The notes under the pieces are model-generated. The model had not been told where the DNA came from. It made no database searches and worked only from the letters and a program-made list of their open reading frames with translations. The position numbers and the translations under genes were made by a program. From NCBI GenBank assembly GCA_964425945.1, contig CAYRPR010000001.1, forward strand, positions 1 to 61,241: a DNA stretch of 61,241 nt, in the 5' to 3' direction. The DNA is from an uncultured Verrucomicrobiota bacterium. Lineage in GTDB: Bacteria; Verrucomicrobiota; Kiritimatiellia; SLAD01. Of this stretch, positions 25,546-45,936 are shown one piece after another (positions within the stretch are counted from its first letter, which is position 1; each line of letters begins with the position of its first letter).

Positions 25546-25546
25546 G

Positions 25547-27215: not shown

Positions 27216-27786
27216 AAAAGATGATGGGCCCCGTCGGCCGGCCGACGGGAGTGTGCGGGTTGTGTTCGGTATCGCCCTGGCGGCCGGATGCATGATGTGG
27301 TTGTGCGGGGATGTGGCGCGCGGCGAAGAAGGAGCCGCCTCGGGCTGGCAGGCATACGTCGATAGCCGTTTCTCCTTCATGGTCGAATATCCCAACGGAT
27401 GGAGCGCGGAGATTGCGGATGAGAACGATGACGCCATGCCCGACTACGTCATGAAGCGCAGTATCTACTTCAAGTCCGGCAGTCCGGCCACGTTCATGAT
27501 CTATGTCTGGAGCAATCGCGAAGAACTGGACCTGATTTCCTGGGCTCATACCAACTATCTGGACTTGATGTCCTATCCGGAGGAGGCGCCTGCCGAAATA
27601 AATGACGAGGTGTTCGGCCAGCCGGCCGTTCGTTTCTTCAACCGGCAGATGACGACGTGCGACATGGAAATCGTTCTGTTCCAGTATCAGGACTGGGTCT
27701 ACATGCTCTTGTACCGCAACTGTGATGAGGGCGCATCGAAACTGCTGTATGAACATTTTGTCGCGTCATTCGCCGGGGATTTCTAA
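27205..27786 (+). CDS. Exported protein, stand-alone copy of the domain duplicated at the N-terminus of the second giant protein
   Basis: 'FSFMVEYPNGWSAE...FMIYVWSNREELDLISWAHTN' aligns with 'FAIYMPTRGWTV...IWIDVWSNPGGLDLDQWMATN' in the 37877 protein. Confidence 0.6.
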   Translation: MRRRKDDGPRRPADGSVRVVFGIALAAGCMMWLCGDVARGEEGAASGWQAYVDSRFSFMVEYPNGWSAEIADENDDAMPDYVMKRSIYFKSGSPATFMIYVWSNREELDLISWAHTNYLDLMSYPEEAPAEINDEVFGQPAVRFFNRQMTTCDMEIVLFQYQDWVYMLLYRNCDEGASKLLYEHFVASFAGDF

Positions 27787-27787
27787 T

Positions 27788-30700
27788 ATGCGATCCGCCA
27801 GACTAGCCGGACTTGCTTTGCTGTGGGCCGCGATGTGGCTCCTGTCCGGCGTCCGCGACGCGTCAGCAGCCGGATACAGCGTCTCCTCCTGCGGAGGGGT
27901 GGCGGCGTGCAGTGGCAACTTCTGTTACTGCTGTGACTCCGAAGGCGTCTATAACGGCGGCAATTGCGTGTGGTACACATGGAATCGCCGGTGCCAGGCC
28001 GGCGAGAAACTGACTTGGTGTACGGACGCCCACAAATGGGCGGCGGACGCGAAATCGCGCGGATGGCCCGTCTGCAGCGTGCCCAAGGTCGGAGCGATCG
28101 GCGTCTACTCGGGACAGCATGTCGGCTACGTGGATGCCATTGAAGGCGATTATGTGTGGACCCGTGAGCAGGCCTGCTGGGGATTCTCCGGCGTCAAATA
28201 TATCAAGCGTCATAAGAGTTATTGGGATCTTGGCTATATCTACTTCAAAAATGACTCGTGTGCGCCTACCACCGGCAATCTGAAGGTGACGATTGAGCCA
28301 TCGGGTGCGCGTAGCGCGGGTGCGCAGTGGCGCCGTACGGGTACGAGCACGTGGCGGAACAGCGGGTACACGGAGACGGGTCTTTCGACGGGCAGCAAGA
28401 CGGTGGAATTCAAGACGATCTCGAACTGGGACAAGCCGGCCAACGCGAGCATCACGGTCAACGCGGGCCAGACGGCTTCGATGACGAAGACGTACGTTCG
28501 TCACAAGGGCTCGCTGAAGGTGACGATCAACCCCTCGGACGCGCGCACGGCGGGCGCGAAGTGGCGCCGGACGGGCACGAGTACCTGGCGTGACAGCGGT
28601 GCTACGGAGTCGAACATCGACACGGGCACGTACACGGTGGAGTTCAACACGTTGGCCAGTCCGTGGATCAAGCCTTCGAACATCAGCGTATCGATCACGA
28701 AGAACAATACGACGTCGGCCACGGCGCGTTATAACCGACCGCCGGTTCTGGCGTCGCCGGGCAGTCATTTTGTGCATGTCGGCGCGTTGTTGACGTTCCC
28801 GGTGACGGCGACGGACGCGGATGGCGACGCGATCACATTGAGTATGGCGAGCGCGCCGTCGGGTGCGACGCTGGTCTCGACGGGCGGTGTGGGTACATTG
28901 CGGTATACGCCGACGTTGGCGCAGTCCGGCGGGACCTTCACGCCGAGCTTCACGGCGACGGACGCGCTGAACGCGAAGGATACGAAGAGCGGGACGATCC
29001 AGGTGGGTTCGCCGCCGACGATCGATCCGATTGCGCCCCAGCGCGCGCGTGTGGGGCAGTTGTACGAGTTGGACGTGCAGGCCGACGATCCGAACGGCGA
29101 CGTGATTACGTTGACGATGGGCAACGCCCCCTCCGGGGCGGTGTTCGATCCGGGCGATGGCCGTCATGGCGTGTTCACGTTCACGCCGGAGTCGTCGCAG
29201 GGCGGCGAGGTGCATGACATCGTATTCACGGCCAGTGATGCGGACGGTCAGCACAGTGTGACGGTCACGCTGATCATCGGCGCGCCGCCGGTGTTACAGC
29301 CGGTTGACGACGTGGCGCTGACCGCGGGTCAGATCGCGAGCTTTACGGTAACCGCGGCGGATCCGAACAACGATGCGAAGACGTTTACGATGACGGGCGC
29401 GCCGGAGACGGCGACGCTGACGGGCTCGGGCGATAGCCGTACGTTTTCATACACGGCGCTGGAGTCGGAGAAGGGGATCGCGTTCGACATCACGTTCCAG
29501 GTGTCGGAGATCGACGGCGAGGACAGCGCGACGATGCGTCTTCGTGTGCAGGGTCCGCCGGAGTTCGTTGAGATCCCGCCGCAACGGGTGGTCATTACGA
29601 ATGAGCTGGAACTGGCGGTGGAAGCGGTGGATCCGGACGGGGACGCGATGACGTTTTCGATGACCGACGCGCCGCCGTCGGCCGTGTTCGAGACGCACGC
29701 GTCGGGCGGGACGTTCCGTTACACGCCTTCGGCGGAGGAGGGGGCGCAGACCTATACGGTGACGTTCACGGCCTCGGCGATCGACGGGGTGACGGGGATG
29801 GAGGTGCCGGTTCTGGTGGGCGTGCCGCCGTTGATGACGGCGCCGGTGACACAGCAAGTGGCCAAGTTTAACCTGCTGGAGTTCGAGGTGAGCGCCTCGG
29901 ACCTGAACGACGACGAACTGGTATTAAGCGTGGCTTCGTTGCCGGAGAACGCGGAGTTCGAGGTGGATGGGCCGGTGGGGGTGTTCCGGTTCACGCCGTC
30001 GTCGTTCCAGGGCGATCAGGATTACGCGGTGGTGTTCCGGGTCGAGGACGGGCTCGACGGATACGATGAGCGTACGGTGGACATTCGCGTGCTCGACGAC
30101 GACATGTACGAGCAGAACGATCTGATGGAGGAGGCGACCGACTTCAATCCATATCGTGGGATGACGCGTCCGGCGAAGCAGTCGGACGACGACTGGTATT
30201 ACATTGACCTGCCGTTCGGCCGTCAACGGGTCAGCGTGGATGTGCAGTTCGACCGTGAGTTGGGCGATATGCAGACCGTGTTGTACAACGCGCAGGGTGT
30301 GGTGGTGGGATACGGCGTTACGATGGCATCGGGATTGGAGTTGCATGCGGATAGTCCCTATTTTGGGCGGCACTATCTGGTGATATTTGGAGAGAACGTT
30401 GGGAATGGATACGCGCTCCTGTGGGATCACGCGGATTCGTGGGACGGTTGCGTCGGGGCGGATGACGCCTATGCGCCGAATCACACGCGGGATACGGCGG
30501 TGGTGTTGACGTCGGGTGAATGGCTGACGGACGGGTTGGGCGTGGGGATCGCGGGTCCGGCGGACTGGTATGTGATCGATGTTCCGGGCGGTGAGGAATG
30601 GTTGAGCGTTACGAGTATCTACGGTCAGGTGGAGCATCCGTTGCGATTGGAGGTGTACGATCCGGACGGCGAGTTGATTGCTTCGGTGGATGGTGCGGAT

Positions 30701-33517
30701 GGCCGGGTGGAGTGGAGCGGCGCGCTGGTATCGCGCGGGGCGCATGCGGTGAAGATCGAGTCGGTGAACGATCCGGTGTGCATTCCGTATGATCTGATTG
30801 TGCATACGGCGCCTCGTGAGAATCTTCCGGTGGAATATCTGTCGGGACGTTATGTGCGTTTGCCGGTATCGGTGTCGGATCAACCGGGCCGCTGGCTGGC
30901 GCCGGACCCGTCGGAAGGAGGGCGGTACAACGCCGCGGGAGCCGGTGGCCGGACGGGTCCGGACTTCTGGGGCAATGTGCCGGCGTTGGCCAACCAGGTG
31001 ATCGGGTTGGGCGGCTCGGTGCGTACGAACGGGTTGGACTGGCATCAGGCGCCGATGATTACGCGTTTGAGCGCAGGGAGCTGGAACCGGTTGTCGATCG
31101 AAGGGGAGCCGTTCGAGGGGCTGTATTTTCAGCGGGTGGTGGAGTTCGAGGAGGGCGACCGGGTGGTGGTGGTGCGCGACCAGTTGCTGAACCTGACCGA
31201 TGAGTCGCTGGAATCACTGCTTACGATGGACAGTGTGAACCCGACGCCGGACTACGCGCAGGCGGATCTGCGCACGGCGAACGACGTGCGGACGGTGTTT
31301 GATCGGCCGGATCTGGTGACGGCGTCGTCGTTGTTGAGCGGGCGGACGGTGGCGTTGGGCTCGTCGCATCCGGCGGCGGTGCCGGACGCGTCGTTCCTGA
31401 GCCGGGTGAATCCCTACACGGTGCTGGCTTCGCCGAACGATCCGGACGGTGCGGCGGCGAATCTGTCGGTGAAGCTGATTCTGAATCACGATCAACTCGG
31501 CGCGAATGAGTCGACCGAGGTTCTGTGGTATCTCGTGTTCGGGTCGGACGCGGATGATGCGGCGGATCAATTTGAGATTGCGGTGATGCGTAACGAGTGG
31601 GATGACGACGCGTTTGAGCCGAATGATGAGTTGGTTGGGGCGGTGGATGTGTCGGGTCAGTCCGGTGCGCGTTTGCGGGCGATCCAGGCCAACGATGACT
31701 GGTACGCGATCGAGTTGCCGATCGGGGTGCAGGACGTGAATGTGGAGGCTCGTTTTGCGCGGGCGCACGGCGACGTGCAGATCGACCTTTATTCGGCGGA
31801 CGGGGACTGGCTGTGCGGGTCGGAATTGACCGACGAGGGCGCGACGCTTTCCTGTGTGGCGGCGGCGCACGGGATCGTTTATCTGCGCGTGTGGGGGGAT
31901 GATTCGGGGAACGTGTACGATCTGGTCTGGACCGCCGGAAGCTCGTGGGGCGGGTGTGCGGGGTCGGTGGACGATGGGTTCGAGCCGAACAACAGCCGGG
32001 ATGAAGCGGGCTTGCTGGCGCCGGGGGTGTGGGGCGCGCTGCAGTCGGGCGGCATGCTGGTGGCGGGAGATGATGACTGGTATGCGCTGGAGTTGACGCC
32101 GGATCAGGTGGCGTTGACCGTAACCAGTGCCCACCATGCGGCGCACGGCGACCTGGCCCTGGAACTGTACGATTGGACCGGGACGCTGTTGCACGCGGTG
32201 GACACGGCGTCGGACTACGAGGTGCTTGCGTTCACGGTGCCCCGGGAAGGGCGGTACTATCTGCGGGTTGTTCCGCCCGCGAGTGGTGCGACGTGCAATC
32301 CGTACGATCTGATCTGGAGCGGGGAACCGTCTGCGGATCCGGCGTCGGATGCGATTCATCTGTACGGACGGTATTTGTATCTGCCGATTCAGCGGACGGG
32401 CGAACCGGGGCGGATGGTCCTGTCGGATCAGAGTGCGGGGTTGCGTTACGATGCGTCGGGGGTGGACGGCTTCGGGGGCGTGGATATCTGGCGTTACCTG
32501 ACGATTCCGTGCGCGCATTACATCGGCTGGGACGGTTCGCAGGTGGTGACGAACGGCAAGGGCTGGGCGTCGGGTCCGGTGGTGGAGAAGCTGAGTGCGG
32601 GCGACTTGAATCATGCCCGTATCAGCGGTACGCCGAAGGATGGTCTGTTGTTCGTCCGTGACGTGCGCTTCATGGATGGCGACCGCGTGATCCTGATTGA
32701 AGATGTGCTGGTCAACGAGGGGGTTGATCCGTTGGACCAGGTGCTGACGATGGATACTTTCCATCCGAATCCGGACTATGACGAGGGCATCCTCAACACC
32801 CGTAACTATGTGACCGCGCTATACCGGGATTTCGAACTGGCAGTGGCCGAGGCGACGCTTTCCGGAATCACACTGGCGGTGGGTTCGGAAAGTCCGTATG
32901 CGGTGGTGGACGCCTCCTTCCTGAGCCGGCAGAACCCCTATACGGTATTGAATGCGCCGAATCATCCGTCGGGTCAGGAGGCGAACTTCTCGCTCAAGAT
33001 GTTGATGAACTATGGCGCCGTGCCGCCGGGTGCGGCCGTGACCGGTCGCTGGGAAATCGTCGTGGGGGTTTCGCGGGCCGAGGCGATAACGCTGTGGCGT
33101 GAGTTGGGGGCGGATCAGCCGGCGATGATGGACATGCAGGGTTCCAGCCTGCCGGACTGGTGGGAGATCGCGTATTTCGGCGGATCGGTCGACCCGGATG
33201 CCGATGAGGATGGAGACGGCATGAGCAATCTCCGGGAGTACCTCGCGGGCACGGACCCCCATGATCCGGAGAGCGTATTCCGCGTGGACTTCAGCGTTCC
33301 GGTTTTCGATCCGCTCATCCCGGGCGGTCCGGTTCTTCACTTTGAGATCCAGCCGGGCCGTCGCGGCACGCTGTTGTACGGGACCAACCTGTTCGGTCCG
33401 TTCTGGCCGTTCCCGGATGCGCCGAGCGGTCCCGGCCGCCATTCCGTGACCGATCATTGGGATCGGATCGAAGGCACCATGTACTATTTATTGCGATTAG
33501 ATGAACCCCAACAATAA
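27788..33517 (+). CDS. Giant exported CHAP-domain protein: CHAP, 2 PEGA-like, 5 cadherin-like Ig, 2x[PPC-PPC-unknown module], Ca-type repeat, terminal beta-sandwich
   Basis: Start at MRSARL with the signal 'ALLWAAMWLLSGVRDASA'. CHAP Cys in 'GGNCVWYTW' (27965) and His in 'GQHVGYV' (28118). Five ~91-aa 'D.(D/N)GD..T..M...P.GA......G.F.(Y/F)TP' repeats. Four PPC-like 'E(P/Q)N(D/N)...DDDWY' domains. C-terminal segment 'DGDGMSNLREYLAGTDPHDPES'. Confidence 0.85.
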   Translation: MRSARLAGLALLWAAMWLLSGVRDASAAGYSVSSCGGVAACSGNFCYCCDSEGVYNGGNCVWYTWNRRCQAGEKLTWCTDAHKWAADAKSRGWPVCSVPKVGAIGVYSGQHVGYVDAIEGDYVWTREQACWGFSGVKYIKRHKSYWDLGYIYFKNDSCAPTTGNLKVTIEPSGARSAGAQWRRTGTSTWRNSGYTETGLSTGSKTVEFKTISNWDKPANASITVNAGQTASMTKTYVRHKGSLKVTINPSDARTAGAKWRRTGTSTWRDSGATESNIDTGTYTVEFNTLASPWIKPSNISVSITKNNTTSATARYNRPPVLASPGSHFVHVGALLTFPVTATDADGDAITLSMASAPSGATLVSTGGVGTLRYTPTLAQSGGTFTPSFTATDALNAKDTKSGTIQVGSPPTIDPIAPQRARVGQLYELDVQADDPNGDVITLTMGNAPSGAVFDPGDGRHGVFTFTPESSQGGEVHDIVFTASDADGQHSVTVTLIIGAPPVLQPVDDVALTAGQIASFTVTAADPNNDAKTFTMTGAPETATLTGSGDSRTFSYTALESEKGIAFDITFQVSEIDGEDSATMRLRVQGPPEFVEIPPQRVVITNELELAVEAVDPDGDAMTFSMTDAPPSAVFETHASGGTFRYTPSAEEGAQTYTVTFTASAIDGVTGMEVPVLVGVPPLMTAPVTQQVAKFNLLEFEVSASDLNDDELVLSVASLPENAEFEVDGPVGVFRFTPSSFQGDQDYAVVFRVEDGLDGYDERTVDIRVLDDDMYEQNDLMEEATDFNPYRGMTRPAKQSDDDWYYIDLPFGRQRVSVDVQFDRELGDMQTVLYNAQGVVVGYGVTMASGLELHADSPYFGRHYLVIFGENVGNGYALLWDHADSWDGCVGADDAYAPNHTRDTAVVLTSGEWLTDGLGVGIAGPADWYVIDVPGGEEWLSVTSIYGQVEHPLRLEVYDPDGELIASVDGADGRVEWSGALVSRGAHAVKIESVNDPVCIPYDLIVHTAPRENLPVEYLSGRYVRLPVSVSDQPGRWLAPDPSEGGRYNAAGAGGRTGPDFWGNVPALANQVIGLGGSVRTNGLDWHQAPMITRLSAGSWNRLSIEGEPFEGLYFQRVVEFEEGDRVVVVRDQLLNLTDESLESLLTMDSVNPTPDYAQADLRTANDVRTVFDRPDLVTASSLLSGRTVALGSSHPAAVPDASFLSRVNPYTVLASPNDPDGAAANLSVKLILNHDQLGANESTEVLWYLVFGSDADDAADQFEIAVMRNEWDDDAFEPNDELVGAVDVSGQSGARLRAIQANDDWYAIELPIGVQDVNVEARFARAHGDVQIDLYSADGDWLCGSELTDEGATLSCVAAAHGIVYLRVWGDDSGNVYDLVWTAGSSWGGCAGSVDDGFEPNNSRDEAGLLAPGVWGALQSGGMLVAGDDDWYALELTPDQVALTVTSAHHAAHGDLALELYDWTGTLLHAVDTASDYEVLAFTVPREGRYYLRVVPPASGATCNPYDLIWSGEPSADPASDAIHLYGRYLYLPIQRTGEPGRMVLSDQSAGLRYDASGVDGFGGVDIWRYLTIPCAHYIGWDGSQVVTNGKGWASGPVVEKLSAGDLNHARISGTPKDGLLFVRDVRFMDGDRVILIEDVLVNEGVDPLDQVLTMDTFHPNPDYDEGILNTRNYVTALYRDFELAVAEATLSGITLAVGSESPYAVVDASFLSRQNPYTVLNAPNHPSGQEANFSLKMLMNYGAVPPGAAVTGRWEIVVGVSRAEAITLWRELGADQPAMMDMQGSSLPDWWEIAYFGGSVDPDADEDGDGMSNLREYLAGTDPHDPESVFRVDFSVPVFDPLIPGGPVLHFEIQPGRRGTLLYGTNLFGPFWPFPDAPSGPGRHSVTDHWDRIEGTMYYLLRLDEPQQ
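28269..33486 (+). repeat. Copy 1 of a 5.2-kb direct repeat (partner at +11,112 nt)
   Basis: By hand alignment, the first ~346 nt differ from copy 2 at 31 positions. From 28615 to 33486 the forward and reverse-frame ORF translations of the two copies are all identical. Confidence 0.9.
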
Positions 33518-33526
33518 GGTGAAATA

Positions 33527-34237
33527 ATGACGCCTATGCACATGGCTCGAATAATGAAGATGGTCATGGCCGCTTCGACCGTTCTCGGCGGTCTGGTGTG
33601 CCAGGGACTTGCCCTAACGCCGACCCACCACCTGGTAAACAACATGGGGGGGCATATGAGCGCGGCGTCCTATTCCACGTACTCGGCCGGTGCCCAAGGT
33701 CATCCGGTGGGCGTGATCGCCGACACGGAGGATATATGGAGCAAGACGATCTACAACTTCACCGGTTTCATTCAGCCGGACGACATCGATCTGCTGGAGG
33801 ATACGGATGGTGACGGCATCGCGGATGTCGTGGATCCCGATATGGACGGCGACGGGCTCTCCAATATCGACGAGTTGTTCGGTTCGTGGTTCGGCGGCGT
33901 GGCGACCGATCCCAAGAGGGGGGACACGAGTGGGAATGGCACATCGGATTACGAGCATTGGATGACGGGCACCAATCCCACCGATCCGGAAAGCCAGCTT
34001 CGCATAACGGAGGTTATTTACAATTCGCCGACCGACGTGCGCATCCGGTTCAGGAGCGTCGGTGGACGGCAATATGAACTATCTCGATCCACGACGCTTG
34101 AGGGCCTGCTGGACGCGCCGTCCATCGACGGCATTGAAGGGGTGCCCGGCCAGGGCCCCTTCAATGAGGGTATAACCGAGTTCATCGATGTGCCGTTCGG
34201 TGAGGATTATTATTATCGTGTGCGATTGGTTCCGTAG
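33527..34237 (+). CDS. Exported protein with thrombospondin-type-3-like Ca-binding repeats and 'YYYRVRL' beta-sandwich C-terminus
   Basis: 'DTDGDGIADVVDPDMDGDGLSNIDE', 'GNGTSDYEHWMTGTNPTDPESQLRI', and terminal 'YYYRVRLVP'. Confidence 0.7.
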   Translation: MTPMHMARIMKMVMAASTVLGGLVCQGLALTPTHHLVNNMGGHMSAASYSTYSAGAQGHPVGVIADTEDIWSKTIYNFTGFIQPDDIDLLEDTDGDGIADVVDPDMDGDGLSNIDELFGSWFGGVATDPKRGDTSGNGTSDYEHWMTGTNPTDPESQLRITEVIYNSPTDVRIRFRSVGGRQYELSRSTTLEGLLDAPSIDGIEGVPGQGPFNEGITEFIDVPFGEDYYYRVRLVP

Positions 34238-34267
34238 TTCATGAAATCACAAAATGGGAGTAGCGAT

Positions 34268-34723
34268 ATGAAGGCATGGCTGATGATGCTGGGCATGATG
34301 ACAGCGGGCACGGTGTTCGCACACATGGTGGCGGAAGGGGAGGAACATGAATTCCACGAAAGTGAAATCCCCATCAGCATGACGACGGACGCGGACGGAC
34401 GACACTTCCTGCTGGCGGCGGACGCGCACGCTGTGGAGGCGACGCCGACATGGGATGGATCGGGCGAGCCGCCCCTGTCCACGGGTAAGGCGCTTGCCCT
34501 GGCCATTGACTGGCTGAAGGAGAACGAACCTGATTTCAGTGAGTTCCATGCGGAGCGTATCACCCTCCAGCGCGTCTGGCATGAGGGACTCGAAGATCGC
34601 TGGATCGCCGCTGTGACGGTTCGCGCTGTCGGATCGCTGGGACGCGTCAAGGTGTCGCACGATTTCGAGGTGGCTGTGCTGATGGACGAAACCGTAGTAG
34701 GACCGCAGGAGGTAAAACCATGA
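34268..34723 (+). CDS. Small exported hypothetical protein
   Basis: Start chosen at MKAWLMMLGMMTAGTVFA (signal peptide). About 150 aa, no motif recognised. Confidence 0.5.
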   Translation: MKAWLMMLGMMTAGTVFAHMVAEGEEHEFHESEIPISMTTDADGRHFLLAADAHAVEATPTWDGSGEPPLSTGKALALAIDWLKENEPDFSEFHAERITLQRVWHEGLEDRWIAAVTVRAVGSLGRVKVSHDFEVAVLMDETVVGPQEVKP

Positions 34724-34760
34724 CGGATGCGAACGCCAATGCAACCAACGGAGAGATGCT

Positions 34761-35744
34761 ATGAAAAAAATGCTTACCATACTGTTTGCGGCGTGGATCG
34801 CCGCGGCCATGGCGCAAGCCGGACCGCCCGATCTGATGAATTACCAGGGGCGCCTGGTCGATACGAATGGTGACCCGGTCAACGGGACCGTATCCGTCGT
34901 CGTACGCATCTTCACGCAGGCGAGCGGCGGAACCGAAATCTGGGAGCAGAACGTCGGGAATGTCGATGTCGCCGGGGGCATGTACACCCTGCAGTTCGGC
35001 GACGCCGGTCTGATCGGCGCGTTCAACAATGCCGAGACCTGGTTGGAGCTGGAGGTCAACAGCGAAACGCTCAGCCCCCGTCACCGTTTGTCATCCGTGC
35101 CGTACGCGCTGCGCGCAGCCGTTGCCGACCAGCTTGGAACACCGCTGGCCGGCATACCAACCGGCGGCATCGCTATCTGGAGCGGAACGCTGCAGGACGT
35201 GCCCGAGGGGTGGGTGTTGTGCGACGGAGACAATGACACGCCTGACCTGCGCGAGCTGTTCATCATGGGCGCGGCGACCGGTCAGGACCCGGGTGATACG
35301 GGCGGCGCACACACCCTGACGCTGGCAGTGAATCAGATGCCGGCTCACACGCACACCGCAACAGCCGGAAGCGCGGGGTCGCACTCGCATTCCGCGTCCA
35401 CCGGTTCGGGAGGGAGCCACTCCAATCACGGAGGGACAACTGGTAGCGGAGGAAGTCACAGCCACTCGATGCCCGCGGACAATTCCCTGGGTTCTCAAAC
35501 CGGACGAATCGGCGGCGGCGTGGGCGGATCGCGAACATCGCAAAGCGAAGAGGGCTTTAACTCGCGGAATCACAGTCACTCCGTCAACAGCCTCAGTTCG
35601 GGCGGCGCTCATACGCATTCGGCGGTAACGGCAAATGCCGCCGGGAGTCATAACCACACGGTCACCGTGAATTCCACCGGTTCGGGCGAGTCCATTGAGA
35701 ACCGCCCGGCGTTTTACGCGTTGGCGTTCATTATGAAGCTGTAA
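34761..35744 (+). CDS. Sec-signal-bearing phage-tail-collar/fibre-like protein with HxH ladder (paralog 1)
   Basis: Signal 'ILFAAWIAAAMAQA'. Collar-like 'PEGWVLCDGDNDTPDLRELF'. Motifs HTH, HSH, HSNH, HSH, then an insert, then HSH, HTH, HNH. Ends 'ENRPAFYALAFIMKL'. Confidence 0.85.
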   Translation: MKKMLTILFAAWIAAAMAQAGPPDLMNYQGRLVDTNGDPVNGTVSVVVRIFTQASGGTEIWEQNVGNVDVAGGMYTLQFGDAGLIGAFNNAETWLELEVNSETLSPRHRLSSVPYALRAAVADQLGTPLAGIPTGGIAIWSGTLQDVPEGWVLCDGDNDTPDLRELFIMGAATGQDPGDTGGAHTLTLAVNQMPAHTHTATAGSAGSHSHSASTGSGGSHSNHGGTTGSGGSHSHSMPADNSLGSQTGRIGGGVGGSRTSQSEEGFNSRNHSHSVNSLSSGGAHTHSAVTANAAGSHNHTVTVNSTGSGESIENRPAFYALAFIMKL

Positions 35745-35762
35745 ACAACGGAGTACACAATC

Positions 35763-36749
35763 ATGAAAACTATGATAATTACCTGTATCTGCGCGGCGGC
35801 CCTGCTGGTCGGCGCGACGGTTCGCGCCGAGGCGCCGCCATCGTCCATCTATTACCAGGGGCGTCTGCTCGATGCCGGCGGCGATCCGGTGGACGCGACC
35901 ATTGACGTCGAAGTGCGCCTATTCACCGAGGAAAGCGGCGGCACGGCGGTGTGGAGCCAGGCGCTTTCCGATATCTCCGTGGTCAACGGCCTCTACAGCT
36001 TCTTCTTCGGTGACGGAGGCCTGGCTGAAGCATTGGCCAACGACTCCGTCTGGCTCGAGTCAGAGGTTGACGGAGAAACCCTCGCACCGCGGCAGCGGTT
36101 GATATCCGTTCCTTACGCCCTGCGCGCCGCAACGGCCGGCCAATTGGATCCTCCGATGTCGGGCGTGCCGACCGGCGTGATCATCATGTGGAGCGGCGGT
36201 CTGGGCGAAATACCGGACGGATGGGCCTTGTGCGACGGTCTGAACGGAACGCCGGACCTGCGTGAACGGTTTGTGATGGGCGCGGGGGTCGAGGACGATG
36301 TCGGCGACATCGTCGGCGCCAACTCCCTCGTGCTTACCGCCGGTCAACTGCCATCCCACGCGCATACCGGATCGCTGGAACTGGCGGGCGCACATGCGCA
36401 CACATCACCCAACGCCCCCTCCGGCGGATCACACACCCATTCCGGCGGGGCGATCAACAATTCCGGGAGCCACACCCACTCCATCCGGTATGGAAATTAC
36501 AGCGAAACCGGCCGAGGTCGTCCGGGTGGCAAATACGGTAACTACACTCAGTTCAACGTGACGTCCGTGTCCGGAGGGAATCACACGCATACGTACAGCG
36601 TGTCGAGCGCGGGGAACCACACGCATACCCTCACTGTGAGTACGACCAACACCCATGCCCACACCGTAACCCTGGAACAAACCGGCGGGAGCGAGGCGAT
36701 CGACAATCGGCCCGCCTATTTCGCACTGGCCTTCATCATGAAGCTGTAA
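35763..36749 (+). CDS. Sec-signal-bearing phage-tail-collar/fibre-like protein with HxH ladder (paralog 2)
   Basis: Signal 'AAALLVGATVRA'. 'PDGWALCDGLNGTPDLRERF'. Motifs HAH, HAH, HTH, HTH, then an insert, then HTH, HTH, HAH. Ends 'DNRPAYFALAFIMKL'. Confidence 0.85.
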   Translation: MKTMIITCICAAALLVGATVRAEAPPSSIYYQGRLLDAGGDPVDATIDVEVRLFTEESGGTAVWSQALSDISVVNGLYSFFFGDGGLAEALANDSVWLESEVDGETLAPRQRLISVPYALRAATAGQLDPPMSGVPTGVIIMWSGGLGEIPDGWALCDGLNGTPDLRERFVMGAGVEDDVGDIVGANSLVLTAGQLPSHAHTGSLELAGAHAHTSPNAPSGGSHTHSGGAINNSGSHTHSIRYGNYSETGRGRPGGKYGNYTQFNVTSVSGGNHTHTYSVSSAGNHTHTLTVSTTNTHAHTVTLEQTGGSEAIDNRPAYFALAFIMKL

Positions 36750-36766
36750 AAAACGGAGAAGATTAC

Positions 36767-37741
36767 ATGAAAACAATGATACAAAATACCCTGTGCGCGT
36801 TGGCACTGATCGTCGGGGTCGCCGTACAAGCCGCCAGCCCGGCCCTGATCAACTACCAGGGACGTCTGCTCGATACGGCTGACGAACCGGTGAACGCGAA
36901 TGTGTCCGTCGTCGTACGGGTGTTCACCCAGCCGTCCGGCGGCAGCGCGGTGTGGGAGGAAAACGTCGGCTCCGTTCTCGTGATCAACGGTCTCTACAAC
37001 TTCCAGTTCGGCGACGCGGGTCTATCCGATGCGCTGGACAACGACCAGGCCTGGCTGGAGTTGACGATGGGCGGCAATACGTTCTCGCCCCGCCAGCGGC
37101 TGGTGTCGGTCCCTTACGCCCTGCATGCCGAGATAGCGGGCGAGGTCGAGGACGCTCCGTCCGGCGTACCGAGCGGCTTGATTGTGATGTGGTACGGCGC
37201 ATTGAGTGCGATTCCGGACGGGTGGCTGCTGTGTGACGGATCGAATGACACACCCGACCTGAGGAACCGGTTCGTGTATGGGGCGTCCGACAGCGTTTCG
37301 CCGGGCACAACGGGAGGCGCCAATTCGTACGTGCTGGCCACGGCCCAATTGCCTGCCCACACGCATGCCGGGGCATCCAGTACGGAGGGATCCCATACGC
37401 ATACCGTGACTACGGCGAGCGCCGGCGCGCACACGCACACCGCGTCGGTCAATAGCCCGAGCCATCGGCACAACCATTATCAGCGCAGTTACAGTGGCAC
37501 GTATCCCCAGGACTCCGTTGCCACGTCGCCGAATACCGGAACGGCCACCATCAACAGCGGTTCATCCGGGAACCACAACCACACGCGCCCGAACGTCAGC
37601 GGCGGATCGCACGGGCACACCATCAGCATTACATCAAACGGAGCGCATGAGCACGATCTGACCATTGACACCACGGGTGACAATGAGGCCATCGACAATC
37701 GGCCGGAGACCATGGTGCTCGCGTTCATCATGAAGGAGTAG
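36767..37741 (+). CDS. Sec-signal-bearing phage-tail-collar/fibre-like protein with HxH ladder (paralog 3)
   Basis: Signal 'ALALIVGVAVQA'. 'PDGWLLCDGSNDTPDLRNRF'. Motifs HTH, HTH, HTH, HRHNH, then an insert, then HNH, HGH, HEH. Ends 'DNRPETMVLAFIMKE'. Confidence 0.85.
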   Translation: MKTMIQNTLCALALIVGVAVQAASPALINYQGRLLDTADEPVNANVSVVVRVFTQPSGGSAVWEENVGSVLVINGLYNFQFGDAGLSDALDNDQAWLELTMGGNTFSPRQRLVSVPYALHAEIAGEVEDAPSGVPSGLIVMWYGALSAIPDGWLLCDGSNDTPDLRNRFVYGASDSVSPGTTGGANSYVLATAQLPAHTHAGASSTEGSHTHTVTTASAGAHTHTASVNSPSHRHNHYQRSYSGTYPQDSVATSPNTGTATINSGSSGNHNHTRPNVSGGSHGHTISITSNGAHEHDLTIDTTGDNEAIDNRPETMVLAFIMKE

Positions 37742-37876
37742 GGCGTCTCGACGTGGGATACCGGCGTGGGTCCGCAAGGCAAGCGCTCGCAATGCATCGA
37801 GGACCCATGGGGGGCGACTGACTGCGCCTGAATGGTGGATATTGTTGTGCCGAACAATTCAGGAAACCGAATAGGG

Positions 37877-40800
37877 ATGACCAATGGGCGCGAGAGGAAG
37901 GCCGTTCAACGCGGCGCCCTGTCGGCTTGTGTACTCCTGCTGATGGCGGCCGCCCTGATCGCAACGTACCCCGCGCGCGCGGACTACAGCCTGCACGTTC
38001 CCGGTGTATACACGCATGATCAATTCGGCTTCGTAGTGTCCTATCCCGCCGAGTGGTCGGTGGTGACCGGGCCGTCAGCCGATGGCGTGGGCGTCGTGTC
38101 CTTCGAGAGCGCGGCGGGGGATCGCATCGTATGCTCCTTCGAGACGTGGACTGGAAAAGGCGGCCTCATGGAGCGTCTGGCAGACGGCGGCGCCCTTCTT
38201 GACGGCATCCTGTCGTCGTGGTTGCCTGATGAGCCAAACGCGTTTGCGGCTGGCGATGCGCCGGCTGTTCGCGTCGCGTGGCCGGCTGAATTCGGGAACA
38301 CCCGGCTGACCACGTTCTTTGTTAAGTACGATTTGGTCTTCCGGATCGATTATGCGCGGGTGTCGGCCGCGGATCACCTGGAGGCGTATGATCACTTGCT
38401 GGATTCGTTCTTCTACGAGCCTTTCCCGCCCCCCGAGCAGGAGTGGATTGCCAATGCCACGCGCGAATTCGCGATATACATGCCAACGCGGGGCTGGACC
38501 GTGCGTCATGAAACCTGGGCCACGGATTATGAATTCGAAATAGAGGAGAAACTGGATTTCGTTCATGTCGATGGCGCCATGATATGGATCGATGTATGGA
38601 GCAATCCTGGAGGACTGGACCTGGATCAGTGGATGGCCACGAATGCATCCATCCTTTCCTTTGGGCCGGAGGATGTGTCGGCGATGTCGCTGTCGGACGG
38701 GCTGATCACGGCGTACCGACATGAAGAAGCGGGTCCGGAAGTCCAAGCGTTCAATAGTGTTCAAACACTCTTTGCCTTCGGCTCGAAAGTATACCGGGCC
38801 AGCTACCTCAAGCGGGACGGTGGCGCCGCGCTGGCGCTATTTGATGAATTGGTTCAGAGCGTATCATTTCAGCCGTCGCCGCGTTGGAATGATTCTTCCG
38901 TACTCGCCGTTTACGAGCGCCGGACCGCATCCAGCGTCGGAGAGATCGTTCCGCTCGTGTACTCCTGCGGCGGCCAGAATGATACCTGCCCGTGCGGCGC
39001 ATACAATCCGTTTCCGTGTTGTAAACATACCGACTGCTATGCGGATGGTTCCGATGGAAATTGCACATGGCACGCGTGGCATCGCGGATGCTGCGATTGG
39101 AACAAGAATATCCCGCCGCGCGGAAATGCCAACACCTGGGCCGGTGTATTCAGCAGCCATGCGGACTACACACTGTCATCCACGCCGCAAGTCGGCGATA
39201 TCGCCTGCAAGAACTCGGGAACGTTCGGCCATGTGGCCTATGTCACATCGGTGGGCTCGACTACGGTTACTGTAACCGAGCAGAACTGCTGTGGCGCCGT
39301 ATGGGGTGTGCCCAGCGGAACGCGCACACACACGTACAGTAAGAGCTACTTCGACGGGGGATATGCCCGGCCTAAATCCGCCACCGGCAGCCTGAAGGTG
39401 ACGATTGAGCCCTCGGGTGCGCGTAGCGCGGGTGCGCAGTGGCGCCGTACGGGCACGAGCACGTGGCGGAACAGCGGGTATACGGAGACGGGTTTGTCGA
39501 CGGGGTCGAAGACGGTGGAGTTCAAGACGATCTCGAACTGGGACAAGCCGGCCAACGCGAGCATCACGATCAACGCGGGCCAGACGGCTTCGATGACGAA
39601 GACGTACGTGCGTCACAAGGGTTCATTGACGGTGACGATCAACCCGGCGGATGCGCGCACGGCGGGCGCTCAGTGGCGTCGGACGGGCACGAGCACCTGG
39701 CGCAATAGCGGGGCGACGGAGTCGAGCATCGACACGGGCACGTACACGGTGGAGTTCAACACGTTGGCCAGTCCGTGGATCAAGCCTTCGAACATCAGCG
39801 TATCGATCACGAAGAACAATACGACGTCGGCCACGGCGCGTTATAACCGACCGCCGGTTCTGGCGTCGCCGGGCAGTCATTTTGTGCATGTCGGCGCGTT
39901 GTTGACGTTCCCGGTGACGGCGACGGACGCGGATGGCGACGCGATCACATTGAGTATGGCGAGCGCGCCGTCGGGTGCGACGCTGGTCTCGACGGGCGGT
40001 GTGGGTACATTGCGGTATACGCCGACGTTGGCGCAGTCCGGCGGGACCTTCACGCCGAGCTTCACGGCGACGGACGCGCTGAACGCGAAGGATACGAAGA
40101 GCGGGACGATCCAGGTGGGTTCGCCGCCGACGATCGATCCGATTGCGCCCCAGCGCGCGCGTGTGGGGCAGTTGTACGAGTTGGACGTGCAGGCCGACGA
40201 TCCGAACGGCGACGTGATTACGTTGACGATGGGCAACGCCCCCTCCGGGGCGGTGTTCGATCCGGGCGATGGCCGTCATGGCGTGTTCACGTTCACGCCG
40301 GAGTCGTCGCAGGGCGGCGAGGTGCATGACATCGTATTCACGGCCAGTGATGCGGACGGTCAGCACAGTGTGACGGTCACGCTGATCATCGGCGCGCCGC
40401 CGGTGTTACAGCCGGTTGACGACGTGGCGCTGACCGCGGGTCAGATCGCGAGCTTTACGGTAACCGCGGCGGATCCGAACAACGATGCGAAGACGTTTAC
40501 GATGACGGGCGCGCCGGAGACGGCGACGCTGACGGGCTCGGGCGATAGCCGTACGTTTTCATACACGGCGCTGGAGTCGGAGAAGGGGATCGCGTTCGAC
40601 ATCACGTTCCAGGTGTCGGAGATCGACGGCGAGGACAGCGCGACGATGCGTCTTCGTGTGCAGGGTCCGCCGGAGTTCGTTGAGATCCCGCCGCAACGGG
40701 TGGTCATTACGAATGAGCTGGAACTGGCGGTGGAAGCGGTGGATCCGGACGGGGACGCGATGACGTTTTCGATGACCGACGCGCCGCCGTCGGCCGTGTT

Positions 40801-43800
40801 CGAGACGCACGCGTCGGGCGGGACGTTCCGTTACACGCCTTCGGCGGAGGAGGGGGCGCAGACCTATACGGTGACGTTCACGGCCTCGGCGATCGACGGG
40901 GTGACGGGGATGGAGGTGCCGGTTCTGGTGGGCGTGCCGCCGTTGATGACGGCGCCGGTGACACAGCAAGTGGCCAAGTTTAACCTGCTGGAGTTCGAGG
41001 TGAGCGCCTCGGACCTGAACGACGACGAACTGGTATTAAGCGTGGCTTCGTTGCCGGAGAACGCGGAGTTCGAGGTGGATGGGCCGGTGGGGGTGTTCCG
41101 GTTCACGCCGTCGTCGTTCCAGGGCGATCAGGATTACGCGGTGGTGTTCCGGGTCGAGGACGGGCTCGACGGATACGATGAGCGTACGGTGGACATTCGC
41201 GTGCTCGACGACGACATGTACGAGCAGAACGATCTGATGGAGGAGGCGACCGACTTCAATCCATATCGTGGGATGACGCGTCCGGCGAAGCAGTCGGACG
41301 ACGACTGGTATTACATTGACCTGCCGTTCGGCCGTCAACGGGTCAGCGTGGATGTGCAGTTCGACCGTGAGTTGGGCGATATGCAGACCGTGTTGTACAA
41401 CGCGCAGGGTGTGGTGGTGGGATACGGCGTTACGATGGCATCGGGATTGGAGTTGCATGCGGATAGTCCCTATTTTGGGCGGCACTATCTGGTGATATTT
41501 GGAGAGAACGTTGGGAATGGATACGCGCTCCTGTGGGATCACGCGGATTCGTGGGACGGTTGCGTCGGGGCGGATGACGCCTATGCGCCGAATCACACGC
41601 GGGATACGGCGGTGGTGTTGACGTCGGGTGAATGGCTGACGGACGGGTTGGGCGTGGGGATCGCGGGTCCGGCGGACTGGTATGTGATCGATGTTCCGGG
41701 CGGTGAGGAATGGTTGAGCGTTACGAGTATCTACGGTCAGGTGGAGCATCCGTTGCGATTGGAGGTGTACGATCCGGACGGCGAGTTGATTGCTTCGGTG
41801 GATGGTGCGGATGGCCGGGTGGAGTGGAGCGGCGCGCTGGTATCGCGCGGGGCGCATGCGGTGAAGATCGAGTCGGTGAACGATCCGGTGTGCATTCCGT
41901 ATGATCTGATTGTGCATACGGCGCCTCGTGAGAATCTTCCGGTGGAATATCTGTCGGGACGTTATGTGCGTTTGCCGGTATCGGTGTCGGATCAACCGGG
42001 CCGCTGGCTGGCGCCGGACCCGTCGGAAGGAGGGCGGTACAACGCCGCGGGAGCCGGTGGCCGGACGGGTCCGGACTTCTGGGGCAATGTGCCGGCGTTG
42101 GCCAACCAGGTGATCGGGTTGGGCGGCTCGGTGCGTACGAACGGGTTGGACTGGCATCAGGCGCCGATGATTACGCGTTTGAGCGCAGGGAGCTGGAACC
42201 GGTTGTCGATCGAAGGGGAGCCGTTCGAGGGGCTGTATTTTCAGCGGGTGGTGGAGTTCGAGGAGGGCGACCGGGTGGTGGTGGTGCGCGACCAGTTGCT
42301 GAACCTGACCGATGAGTCGCTGGAATCACTGCTTACGATGGACAGTGTGAACCCGACGCCGGACTACGCGCAGGCGGATCTGCGCACGGCGAACGACGTG
42401 CGGACGGTGTTTGATCGGCCGGATCTGGTGACGGCGTCGTCGTTGTTGAGCGGGCGGACGGTGGCGTTGGGCTCGTCGCATCCGGCGGCGGTGCCGGACG
42501 CGTCGTTCCTGAGCCGGGTGAATCCCTACACGGTGCTGGCTTCGCCGAACGATCCGGACGGTGCGGCGGCGAATCTGTCGGTGAAGCTGATTCTGAATCA
42601 CGATCAACTCGGCGCGAATGAGTCGACCGAGGTTCTGTGGTATCTCGTGTTCGGGTCGGACGCGGATGATGCGGCGGATCAATTTGAGATTGCGGTGATG
42701 CGTAACGAGTGGGATGACGACGCGTTTGAGCCGAATGATGAGTTGGTTGGGGCGGTGGATGTGTCGGGTCAGTCCGGTGCGCGTTTGCGGGCGATCCAGG
42801 CCAACGATGACTGGTACGCGATCGAGTTGCCGATCGGGGTGCAGGACGTGAATGTGGAGGCTCGTTTTGCGCGGGCGCACGGCGACGTGCAGATCGACCT
42901 TTATTCGGCGGACGGGGACTGGCTGTGCGGGTCGGAATTGACCGACGAGGGCGCGACGCTTTCCTGTGTGGCGGCGGCGCACGGGATCGTTTATCTGCGC
43001 GTGTGGGGGGATGATTCGGGGAACGTGTACGATCTGGTCTGGACCGCCGGAAGCTCGTGGGGCGGGTGTGCGGGGTCGGTGGACGATGGGTTCGAGCCGA
43101 ACAACAGCCGGGATGAAGCGGGCTTGCTGGCGCCGGGGGTGTGGGGCGCGCTGCAGTCGGGCGGCATGCTGGTGGCGGGAGATGATGACTGGTATGCGCT
43201 GGAGTTGACGCCGGATCAGGTGGCGTTGACCGTAACCAGTGCCCACCATGCGGCGCACGGCGACCTGGCCCTGGAACTGTACGATTGGACCGGGACGCTG
43301 TTGCACGCGGTGGACACGGCGTCGGACTACGAGGTGCTTGCGTTCACGGTGCCCCGGGAAGGGCGGTACTATCTGCGGGTTGTTCCGCCCGCGAGTGGTG
43401 CGACGTGCAATCCGTACGATCTGATCTGGAGCGGGGAACCGTCTGCGGATCCGGCGTCGGATGCGATTCATCTGTACGGACGGTATTTGTATCTGCCGAT
43501 TCAGCGGACGGGCGAACCGGGGCGGATGGTCCTGTCGGATCAGAGTGCGGGGTTGCGTTACGATGCGTCGGGGGTGGACGGCTTCGGGGGCGTGGATATC
43601 TGGCGTTACCTGACGATTCCGTGCGCGCATTACATCGGCTGGGACGGTTCGCAGGTGGTGACGAACGGCAAGGGCTGGGCGTCGGGTCCGGTGGTGGAGA
43701 AGCTGAGTGCGGGCGACTTGAATCATGCCCGTATCAGCGGTACGCCGAAGGATGGTCTGTTGTTCGTCCGTGACGTGCGCTTCATGGATGGCGACCGCGT

Positions 43801-44703: not shown

Positions 44704-45936
44704 ATGAGTCCCGAATATGTTGCCCTGCGCGGCCGAGGGCTGTTGGTCATTGCCGTCACGTTGCTCCTGCCCTGGTTGATCCTTCTGTATATCCTCCAAC
44801 CCTGGGAGGGCCCGACCGTCAAGACCGTCAGGCGTCCGTTGGTGGTCGATGCACCCAAGCGATCGGCGGGTTCGTGGGGTGATATCGAATACACCCGCAT
44901 CACCATCGCGCCGCCGGATGAGTTCCTGCGCGAGATGCTTCCGGCGGGCGGCGCGAAGGAAACCACCTGGTTCATCACTGACATGACCGAGGAGACGTTC
45001 ACGGAGTTCGTCGATGGGTTGGACCTTACCGATTCGCAGCGCACCTGGTTGAAGGACTCATTGCAGACGGCGCCCCTTGTCAACGGATACAAGCTTCACC
45101 CGGACAGTGAATTTATCCGCACGCTTTCACCGTCCGCGCGGGCCGCGATTTATCATCGCCTCGGCGAAACCGAACTGAACATGGCCCAGGAGCGGGCCTA
45201 TCGGTTTTGCGGCGAGCCCGACGAATGGTTTGCCGATGCGACCCTGCCGGAGCCCATCATCGAACGGATGCAATCGATGGTCTATGAAAACGGCCGGTTC
45301 CGCTTCTTTGCCGATATCGACCTTTTGCTCCCGTTGCTCGAGACGCAGGCGCAGCGATTGGATCTGGTGAAACTGCTGGCGCGCGAATCGACGCTATTGA
45401 TGCGATTGCATATCAACGCGGATACGGATATCGATCAGCTTGTCGAGTACTGGGGCAAGGGCGGTCGCAGCAAGGATGTACGTCCGTTGCTGGAATCGTT
45501 GTCCAGACTGCCGGGCGAGCAGTACATTGACGTCGTGCATCTGCTTCCGCCCTTTGCGCGGCGACGCTTGTACACCTATCCTCACGTGATCGCCGATGGA
45601 AAGGCGCACATGCGCGATTGTCATTGGACATCGCTGAATTTCTTCAATGAAGTGCCCGACGAGCGTTTGACCGATCCGGATTTCCAGTTTAAGCGTTTGA
45701 CGAATGACTACTATCCCGTTTACGGGGACCACGAGCTGGGGGATCTGGTATTCTTCATGGCGGGCAGCAACCAGCTGTATCATACCGCCGTGTATATTGC
45801 CGATGATGTCTTGTTCACGAAGAATGGCGCGCTTCCCTCACGGCCCTGGATGCTCGTGCGCCTGGAGGACATGCAGGACTATTATCCCAAACACGATCCC
45901 ATCGAGGTCCATTATTTCCGCCGTAGAGGACGTTGA
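44704..45936 (+). CDS. Membrane-anchored protein with C-terminal NlpC/P60-like (papain-fold) domain
   Basis: N-terminal TM 'LLVIAVTLLLPWLILLYIL'. The C-terminal segment 'RDCHWTSLNFF...ELGDLVFFMAGSNQLYHTAVYIADDVLFTKNG' fits the Cys...GDLVFF...H pattern of NlpC/P60. Confidence 0.6.
   Translation: MSPEYVALRGRGLLVIAVTLLLPWLILLYILQPWEGPTVKTVRRPLVVDAPKRSAGSWGDIEYTRITIAPPDEFLREMLPAGGAKETTWFITDMTEETFTEFVDGLDLTDSQRTWLKDSLQTAPLVNGYKLHPDSEFIRTLSPSARAAIYHRLGETELNMAQERAYRFCGEPDEWFADATLPEPIIERMQSMVYENGRFRFFADIDLLLPLLETQAQRLDLVKLLARESTLLMRLHINADTDIDQLVEYWGKGGRSKDVRPLLESLSRLPGEQYIDVVHLLPPFARRRLYTYPHVIADGKAHMRDCHWTSLNFFNEVPDERLTDPDFQFKRLTNDYYPVYGDHELGDLVFFMAGSNQLYHTAVYIADDVLFTKNGALPSRPWMLVRLEDMQDYYPKHDPIEVHYFRRRGR

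Follow-up and report, generated by a model that had tools for sequence, protein, structure and literature searches.

A conserved triad of genes for predicted exported mini-fibres with gp37-like tips in Kiritimatiellia

Three tandem fibre genes and their products

The window analyzed in this study is the entire contig CAYRPR010000001.1 (61,241 bp) of a metagenome-assembled genome (MAG) from NCBI, derived from an uncultured member of Kiritimatiellia, and it carries on its forward strand three consecutive genes for small fibre-like proteins: paralog 1 (orthogroup g1; 34761..35744, 327 aa), paralog 2 (g2; 35763..36749, 328 aa) and paralog 3 (g3; 36767..37741, 324 aa). Paralogs 2 and 3 are 50% and 45% identical, respectively, to paralog 1, and the mean column identity is 69%. 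Each protein consists of two modules, an N-terminal domain and a C-terminal tip, with virtually no shaft separating them. An earlier note on this DNA, made from its letters alone, had described three tandem paralogs of a shared plan, and this description held: the open reading frames lie where it had placed them, and the signal peptide, the beta domain, the collar motif and the end motif (E/D)NRP......AFIMK(L/E) were recognized in all three.

The segments of each chain are named below after their putative counterparts in phage fibre tips. In paralog 1, the signal peptide (residues 1-20; positions 34761-34820) is followed by the N-domain (21-117; 34821-35111), the N-terminal part of the collar (133-195), an ascending needle strand (196-235) with the motifs HTH, HSH, HSNH and HSH, a Gly-rich head (236-270; 35466-35570), a descending needle strand (271-299) with HSH, HTH and HNH, and the C-terminal part of the collar (300-327). 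The corresponding segments of paralog 2 are the signal peptide (1-22), the N-domain (23-120; 35829-36122), the first collar part (136-198), the ascending strand with four HxH motifs (199-239), a Tyr-rich head (240-273; 36480-36581), the descending strand with three HxH motifs (274-300) and the second collar part (301-328). Those of paralog 3 are the signal peptide (1-22), the N-domain (23-119; 36833-37123), the first collar part (135-197), the ascending strand with HTH, HTH, HTH and HRHNH (198-237), the head (238-269; 37478-37573), the descending strand with HNH, HGH and HEH (270-296) and the second collar part (297-324). The heads of paralogs 1, 2 and 3 contain one, five and three aromatic residues, respectively.

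All three signal peptides, as assigned by rule and not by a predictor program, carry a basic n-region and a hydrophobic core, which are seen in the orthologues too, and end at AxA-type sites for signal peptidase I: MKKMLTILFAAWIAAAMAQA↓G for paralog 1 (AQA↓G), MKTMIITCICAAALLVGATVRA↓E for paralog 2 (VRA↓E) and MKTMIQNTLCALALIVGVAVQA↓A for paralog 3 (VQA↓A). Neither a lipobox nor a twin-arginine motif was found in any of the three.

Eight loci were compared, the window together with L001, L004, L006, L087, L092, L093 and L094, and exactly three consecutive fibre genes (323-339 aa) are present in every one of them, full-length relatives being confined to Kiritimatiellia. The strict number of HxH motifs in the window is six in paralog 1, seven in paralog 2 and eight in paralog 3 (with the overlapping HRHNH counted), and paralog 1 contains in addition the degenerate HSNH at residues 220-223; composition-preserving shuffles (5000 shuffles) gave far lower numbers, with a mean of 0.6-0.7 and a maximum of 5. 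The insert separating motif 4 from motif 5 measures 35, 34 and 32 residues in paralogs 1, 2 and 3, and thus the ladder of four plus three HxH motifs around an insert, as the earlier note had put it, was confirmed. This 4+3 pattern was found in 28 of the 28 triad sequences, with the third level degenerate in paralog 1 of the window and of L004; five of the six proteins in g3 have an additional, overlapping HxH at level 4. The degenerate HSNH of the window is accompanied by HSDH in its closest orthologue (L004), and the deeper orthologues are intact. The motifs follow each other with a period of 12 residues, occasionally 11 or 13, and the distances from GWxLCDG to the first HxH (46 residues) and from the last HxH to NRP (16 residues) are the same in all 28 sequences. 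Among 121 relatives, the His residues of motifs 1, 2 and the last are invariant or nearly so.

The genes of the triad are separated by gaps of only 17-18 nt, and each is preceded by AACGGAG on the forward strand (34747-34753, 35747-35753 and 36752-36758), best read as a strong Shine-Dalgarno sequence. Of the three sites reported previously, those at 34747 and 35747 were located as described, and the third starts at 36752 instead of 36750. The accompanying proposal, that the duplication unit had carried the translation signal along, did not stand, and AACGGAG as a relic of duplication was rejected because the triplication is ancient (see below) and the orthologous loci retain just the GGAG(A) core at unchanged spacing; in addition, the window contains no excess of the heptamer (10 observed against 7.6 expected). 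The scan for promoters and terminators gave no signal exceeding the shuffle expectation.

A fibre-tip-like module joined to a predicted beta-sandwich domain

The nature of the C-terminal module was examined by comparison with protein families and known structures. Tail-fibre families of PHROGs match residues ~128-327 end to end with E-values of 1e-22 to 1e-27 (2.6e-26 for paralog 1 and 7.7e-27 for paralog 3). The Pfam family Collar gave 15-20 bits against a cut-off of 24, a score that stays below threshold because the needle splits the collar and the model sees only its N-terminal part, the first 20-22 profile positions. When a profile made from the three paralogs was compared with PDB, it matched fibre tips only, namely 9QGO, 9NXK, 2XGF (E 2e-8) and 6OV6, and phmmer search of PDB with paralog 2 returned the same entries (9qgo, 6ov6, 9nxk and 2xgf). 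Of these, 2XGF is the tip of T4 gp37, 9NXK is the fibre of Pseudomonas phage Pa223, and 6OV6 is the C24 protein, a putative long-tail-fibre tip of a Bizionia prophage. The alignment to gp37 covers the collar motif, the first needle strand, the head, the second strand and the C-terminal strand. The collar is split in the triad proteins into GWxLCDGxNxTPDLR (N-part) and NRPxxxxLAFIMK (C-terminal end), and the alignments to 2XGF and 6OV6 span both parts; the collar of T4 gp37 is likewise split, into residues 811-860 and 1016-1026 (PMC12724248). Seven iron ions are bound in gp37 through HxH motifs (PMC11705849), and the seven HxH levels of the triad proteins agree with this number. Both the match to 2XGF and the number of motifs support the likeness to the gp37 tip that had been suggested earlier.

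Foldseek search with the model of the C-terminal half gave six matches at E<=10, of which five are fibres of phages or contractile injection systems (chains of 6ov6, 9nxk and 8on5), four of these at a probability of 1.00, and the sixth, at a probability of 0.14, is to one chain of the baseplate complex of T4 (5iv5). As judged from sequence comparison, the C-terminal half is homologous to phage tail-fibre tips, including that of T4 gp37. Its identity to annotated tail fibres of Burkholderia and Ralstonia phages is 31-37%, Synechococcus phages contribute the largest number of matching records, and no phage match covers the N-terminal ~90 residues. Short relatives of ~200 aa are annotated as 'microcystin-dependent protein', and the two inspected are single genes in phage contigs and form no triad; Burkholderia phage DC1 carries four paralogous fibres, hence no triad; and the more distant cellular relatives with the same architecture, P0024 and P0033, are single genes. 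P0033 (278 aa, three HxH) is located directly 3' of a gene for a T2SS-E/type-IV-pilus-type ATPase (L090:604-3599), an arrangement that may be a hint of the fibre export route or a coincidence.

The N-domain gave no Pfam match in any of the triad proteins, and its sole NCBIfam match is NF053851 Bdello_MAT_N, with E-values of 5e-7 to 1.7e-10 (7e-9 for paralog 1 and 1.7e-10 for paralog 3). AlphaFold2 (AF2) predicts for this ~97-aa domain a beta sandwich at residues ~28-115 with a predicted local distance difference test (pLDDT) score above 90. In Bdellovibrio bacteriovorus, 21 mosaic adhesive trimer (MAT) fibres have been described (Caulton et al. 2024, PMC10769870); in all 21, the signal peptide is directly followed by a conserved beta-rich N-domain, which is thought to be placed at the surface of the predator, and the chain ends in a variable, phage-like tip that has an S74 chaperone-protease in some fibres and none in others. 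The beta domain of the triad had been noticed in the earlier reading of this DNA, in which its probable MAT-type identity was missed; this identity would be the key to the nature of these proteins.

The wide distribution of the N-domain became clear after profile search. At E<=1e-3 the profile matched 63,686 representative proteins, and 25,143 remained at E<=1e-10; the matching segment nearly always lies at residues ~21-125 of proteins ranging from 130 to >3000 aa, in almost every case directly behind a signal peptide. Another search with the N-domain profile gave 34 matches, all to short proteins, and was uninformative. Among species-representative genomes, the matches come from Kiritimatiellae, Lentisphaerae, Verrucomicrobiota, Elusimicrobiota, Zixibacteria, Ignavibacteria, Gemmatimonadota and Cloacimonadota. 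The C-termini attached to this domain include Peptidase_S74, collagen, pentapeptide, MopE-like and classical Collar types, plus one sub-threshold match to Peptidase_G2, and this mosaic matches the one of S74 and non-S74 tips described for MATs (PMC10769870). Of 10 N-domain relatives scanned, 6 gave sub-threshold matches to Bdello_MAT_N (29-53 bits). The triad is of the non-S74 type, and the Kiritimatiellia fibres thus appear to be compact, non-S74 members of a very broad MAT-like superfamily.

Two further observations were made on the N-domain. In L087, a fourth MAT-like fibre gene (L087:87-1001; 304 aa) is located upstream of the giant gene of that locus (see below), and its product combines the same N-domain with a tip of classical Collar plus Gp10_C and no HxH needle, an instance of tip swapping on one anchor within a locus. 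The Pseudomonadales MAG PL25a_bin.76 (JANQLY01 contigs) carries at least 10 or 11 N-domain fibre genes (L018, L019, L024, L031, L033, L039, L043, L051, L059, L074 and L080) with C-termini of collagen, pentapeptide and Cys-rich types; the size of this repertoire recalls the 21 MATs of Bdellovibrio and prompts the question whether the organism is a predator.

History and neighbourhood of the triad

The neighbor-joining tree separates the triad proteins into three orthogroups, each with 100% bootstrap support, and in the window, L001, L004 and L006 each orthogroup matches one position in the row of three genes. By gene length and group membership, L092-L094 fit the same order, which is constant in the seven loci where it could be checked. 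The identity of orthologues among lineages is 45-66%. Three positional orthogroups of this support indicate that the triplication predates the divergence of these lineages.

In order to locate the differences between paralogs, identity was calculated for each region. Between orthogroups it is 0.50-0.60 for the N-domain, collar and needle and 0.40-0.48 for the linker; within orthogroups, it is 0.51-0.72 for the non-head regions. The head is 0.55 identical within orthogroups versus 0.11-0.18 between them. Since the head alone diverges between orthogroups, it is the head that defines a paralog; the heads themselves are under purifying selection. Outside the head, orthogroup-specific conserved positions make up 0-5% per region, too few to separate homotrimers from a heterotrimer. 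The head lengths of the three paralogs stay within ~3 residues of each other in each genome, and in the divergent lineage of L087 all three heads are ~3 residues longer.

The triad is accompanied by genes for giant exported proteins. In the window, giant protein 1 (27722..33517, forward strand; 1931 aa) contains a CHAP amidase/peptidase domain, Big_9/cadherin-like Ig repeats, PPC and TSP3, and giant protein 2 (37832..44623, forward strand; 2263 aa) also carries a CHAP domain, a fold of peptidoglycan amidases and peptidases. Wherever a locus is of sufficient length, a giant of 1900-2260 aa adjoins the triad. Orthologues of giant 1 precede the triad in L001, L004 and L006; the giant also lies before the triad in L087 and after it in L092, and only one is present in these related loci, in contrast to the window with giants on both sides. 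The CHAP domain was detected in the giants of the window, L001, L004, L006 and L092, and the giant of L087 has no recorded CHAP match. The link between triad and CHAP giants, to which the earlier note had pointed, is therefore supported by conserved synteny, a CHAP giant being found in the window and, among the five other loci of sufficient length, in four.

The C-terminal 5.2 kb of giant 2 is 99.3% identical in DNA sequence to that of giant 1 (39381-44620 versus 28269-33509). This 5,242-bp direct repeat encodes the C-terminal ~1750 aa of both giants, and its two copies enclose the triad together with the TSP3 gene and the 160-aa gene; it either arose by duplication very recently or is an artefact of assembly, and would serve as a recombination substrate for deletion or amplification of the cassette. 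Giant 2 has an extra N-terminal extension of ~330 aa (37832-38900), which by eye resembles a 193-aa protein encoded upstream (27205-27786; F.F..YP..W motif) and suggests a gene fusion in one copy.

Two small genes on the forward strand lie between giant 1 and the triad. One (33527..34237) encodes an exported protein of 236 aa, in which Ca-binding repeats of thrombospondin type 3 (TSP3) are combined with a C-terminal domain resembling that of the giants; in all eight loci this position is taken by a gene for 233-252 aa, the TSP3 similarity being faint or weak where recorded. The other (34241..34723), directly upstream of the triad, encodes an exported protein of 160 aa with a His/Asp/Glu-rich stretch after the signal peptide, and a gene of about this size directly precedes the triad in all loci examined except L087, where none was called. 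Its orthologues (L001:7533-8021, L004:7481-7969 and L006:7513-8013) vary in this stretch, which reads HAHEGHDGHVHGEDHD in L001; as a speculation, the protein could be a periplasmic metal-binding or assembly helper. Behind giant 2, the gene at 44704..45936 (forward strand) encodes a membrane-anchored protein of 410 aa with an N-terminal helix and a papain/NlpC-like-looking C-terminus with invariant Cys (DCxW) and His, and its orthologues follow the triad in L001 (11275-12306) and L006 (11090-12286). Neither the 160-aa nor the 410-aa protein gave a match in Pfam, NCBIfam, PADLOC or PDB.

Further upstream, and co-conserved with the triad, are forward-strand genes for a LuxR/GerE regulator (23239-23826), a 516-aa He_PIG-like protein (within 23239..27786), a 290-aa PEP-CTERM-like protein (25547-26419), a protein of ~280 aa (26301-27215) and the above-mentioned 193-aa protein, for which L001 and L087 have orthologues. 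In L092, the triad is likewise preceded by the same LuxR, 514-aa, PEP-CTERM and 278-aa genes. The C-terminal end of the 290-aa protein, IPEPDYALMMALFMLLLLRGVKSR, resembles a PEP-CTERM sorting signal, and its counterpart in L092 gave a weak match to PEP_exosort_dom, which implies that exosortase-dependent surface proteins are probably encoded in the same conserved locus.

The remaining genes of the contig are chromosomal, including those for 2-hydroxyacid dehydrogenase, TPR proteins, ExbB, MutL, SerS, Ser/Thr kinase, TilS, FtsH, FolP, CdaA, YbbR and ThrC; no tRNA gene was found on the contig. The flanks beyond the locus, where readable, differ among the loci and consist of cellular genes. No gene for capsid, terminase, sheath, tube or baseplate was detected on the contig (61 kb) or in flanks of 10 kb around the eight loci. 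The claim that the fibres are not assembled on a virion is therefore in agreement with a housekeeping contig and with eight loci devoid of phage structural genes, which disposes of the prophage cassette that the earlier note had considered. A role in anti-phage defence was also dropped, because PADLOC gave no match for the fibres or their neighbours.

Proposed role and comparison with known systems

Taking gene structure, homologies, conservation and synteny together, we consider that the triad is best read as encoding Sec-exported cell-surface mini-fibres of the MAT kind with gp37-type, metal-stapled tips (probability about 0.72). The cleavable signal peptide would carry each chain across the inner membrane by the Sec pathway, and the beta-sandwich N-domain of ~97 residues would dock the fibre at the cell surface. 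The C-terminal ~190 residues would form a miniature receptor-binding tip of the T4 gp37 type, in which the split collar nucleates the trimer and holds the three chains together; the ascending strand with four HxH and the descending strand with three HxH, intertwined among the three chains, would make up the needle, each HxH level of the three chains providing an axial His6 metal site, with up to seven per trimer; and the head of 32-35 residues at the distal end would bind the ligand. With collar, needle and anchor common to the paralogs and the head essentially their only difference, the triad would present three conserved head sequences. The context of virion or phage structural genes that belongs to such tips is absent from the contig and the eight loci, and signal peptides are present, so that the tip is predicted to work like that of gp37 without being part of a phage tail fibre. 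From the homologues we infer surface exposure, trimer formation, metal binding and a ligand; export beyond the periplasm and functional coupling to the CHAP giants are inferred as well. The role is most likely the binding of other cells or of cell-envelope glycans and the positioning of the CHAP apparatus, the conserved linkage to CHAP giants making recognition of a target cell or of envelope glycans, in the service of a lytic or adhesive apparatus at the surface, the most economical reading.

Several points weigh against this interpretation. Kiritimatiellia are taken as diderm, and a Sec signal delivers only to the periplasm; a route from there to the surface was not identified in this analysis. 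The gp37 protein folds in the cytoplasm with chaperones and Fe(II), and the fibre proposed here, unlike that of phage, would fold and load metal outside the cytoplasm and would have to cross the outer membrane. Trimer formation and metal binding are proposed from homology alone, one HxH is lost in paralog 1 of this genome (HSNH), and the needle has a pLDDT of 45-55 in the monomer AF2 models of both the full-length protein and the C-terminal half, although a value near 50 is as expected for the monomer model of an intertwined trimer. The TM-scores of the Foldseek matches are low (0.25-0.29), leaving the needle without independent structural confirmation. The match to Bdello_MAT_N scores 30-41 bits, below the curated cut-off of 60, and in its best part extends over positions ~4-76 of a 162-position profile. 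To our knowledge, no ligand and no predatory or lytic phenotype has been reported for Kiritimatiellia, and the full-text literature search with the taxon name and 'tail fiber' returned no paper.

The three heads could be displayed on three homotrimers or jointly on one 1:1:1 heterotrimer, and between the two the balance tilts slightly towards homotrimers. Three separate homotrimers, each with its own head and ligand, would form a small fixed adhesin repertoire on one anchor, a reading to which we give even odds. Homotrimers are the rule for this fold, gp37 itself being a homotrimer (PMC12724248) and 9qgo, 9nxk, 2xgf and 6ov6 each listing three single-sequence chains, and the relatives P0024 and P0033 are encoded by single genes. 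The restriction of the differences between paralogs to the putative receptor-binding head is as expected from tip diversification in the MAT style (PMC10769870), and paralogous arrays of MAT-like fibres with differing C-terminal tips are common elsewhere. With group-specific positions so scarce outside the head, collar and needle would offer no means of chain selection. A free repertoire, however, should gain and lose members, yet all eight loci hold exactly three, and head lengths that agree so closely within each genome would be needless for independent fibres.

These last two points speak at the same time for an obligate heterotrimer with one chain from each paralog, a plausible form of the heterotrimer that the earlier note had raised and an asymmetric fibre whose head is composed of three inserts, which in our estimate falls somewhat short of an even chance. 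The number of genes is exactly one per orthogroup in every locus, in constant order where assignable, despite the moderate identity of the orthologues; the short intergenic gaps are combined with equally strong Shine-Dalgarno sequences; the register of collar and needle is identical in the three paralogs; and the lengthening of the heads in L087 affects all three. Furthermore, the head of paralog 1, Gly-rich and with one aromatic residue against five and three in the Tyr-rich heads of paralogs 2 and 3, looks a poor core for a homotrimeric head, and the loss of HxH is restricted to this paralog. A precedent is known in virophage DSLV2, of which three consecutive gp37-tip-like proteins, forming positional orthogroups, co-purify at 1:1:1 (published in 2025, PMC12724248).

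A different alternative is that the fibres are structural or self-directed parts of the envelope, and not adhesins for foreign cells, for instance anchoring or regulating the CHAP giants for remodelling of the own wall, or binding polysaccharide particles. The heads are under purifying, not diversifying, selection, with 55% identity within orthogroups as for the rest of the protein, which is more in keeping with a conserved ligand than with an arms race; Kiritimatiellia are known as polysaccharide degraders, and the lack of known predatory behaviour in this group keeps the alternative alive. On the other hand, every characterized relative of the tip binds receptors on the surface of other cells, and the CHAP giants with Ig-like and PPC domains look outward-facing. 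We regard a self-directed function as less likely, albeit worth keeping in mind. Still more doubtful is the strongest form of the adhesin reading, in which an obligate heterotrimeric metal-stapled fibre targets the CHAP giants onto other bacteria as a phage-free, contact-dependent bacteriolytic or predatory apparatus; if true, it would be the first cellular, Sec-exported fibre of the gp37 type, assembled and metal-loaded outside the cytoplasm and carrying an asymmetric three-part head. The least credible alternative, a prophage or tailocin remnant whose tail-fibre genes are still used on a particle, was rejected after annotation of the whole contig and the eight related loci: the similarity of the tip to Burkholderia and Ralstonia phage fibres and the short relatives in phage contigs would suit it, but particle genes are absent, all three proteins carry signal peptides and a non-phage N-domain, and the locus is vertically conserved under purifying selection.

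Compared with known systems, the tip of the exported mini-fibres is closest to T4 gp37 and its relatives (6OV6, 9NXK and 9QGO), with which it shares the split collar, the up and down needle strands with HxH motifs and a head of ~30 residues at the turn, in addition to significant sequence homology and seven HxH per chain against seven Fe in gp37. The motifs of gp37 are arranged as three up and four down with irregular spacing, in contrast to four up and three down with a strict 12-residue period in the triad. Phage tips lack a signal peptide, fold in the cytoplasm and are attached to the virion, whereas the triad proteins are predicted to be exported and carry a cellular anchor domain.

With the MATs of Bdellovibrio (PMC10769870), the triad proteins share a signal peptide followed by a beta-rich, putatively related N-domain and a variable phage-like tip, chromosomal non-virion genes, several paralogs per genome, and the S74/non-S74 split within the wider N-domain family. 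The MATs are of ~840-1,150 aa where lengths are given in the excerpts of that paper, as opposed to 324-328 aa with essentially no shaft in the window, and their N-domain is ~130 aa long versus ~97 aa, with a Bdello_MAT_N score below the curated cut-off; the gp37-type HxH needle tip is not among the MAT tips mentioned in these excerpts. The fixed triad in fixed order, the linkage to CHAP giants and the host, a member of Kiritimatiellia in the PVC group with no known predatory lifestyle, also differ from the Bdellovibrio MATs. The DSLV2 virophage, likened here by description, resembles the triad in having three consecutive paralogous proteins with collar and receptor-binding parts in positional orthogroups, the trio being experimentally reported as a 1:1:1 heterotrimer; its proteins are attached to the capsid, amount to ~58 kDa in total and have neither signal peptide nor MAT N-domain, and 'HxH' is absent from the main text of that report (PMC12724248).

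New with respect to these systems, and without a description that we could find in the searchable literature, are the shaftless fusion of both modules, the 4+3 ladder with its strict period of 12 residues, the ancient origin and fixed make-up of the triad, its occurrence in Kiritimatiellia and the linkage to CHAP giants, the last of which suggests an unrecognized system of cell-cell interaction or lysis in Kiritimatiellia. The triad would offer a tractable system for metal acquisition by HxH motifs outside the cytoplasm, for heterotrimeric gp37-type tips in cells and for the partner of the MAT N-domain. In comparison with both parent systems, the receptor-binding tip of a T4-type long tail fibre appears to have been recruited by cells for use as an exported module of their surface and fused to an anchor domain hitherto described only for Bdellovibrio MAT fibres, a domain that heads a very large family of ~63,700 representative proteins over many phyla.

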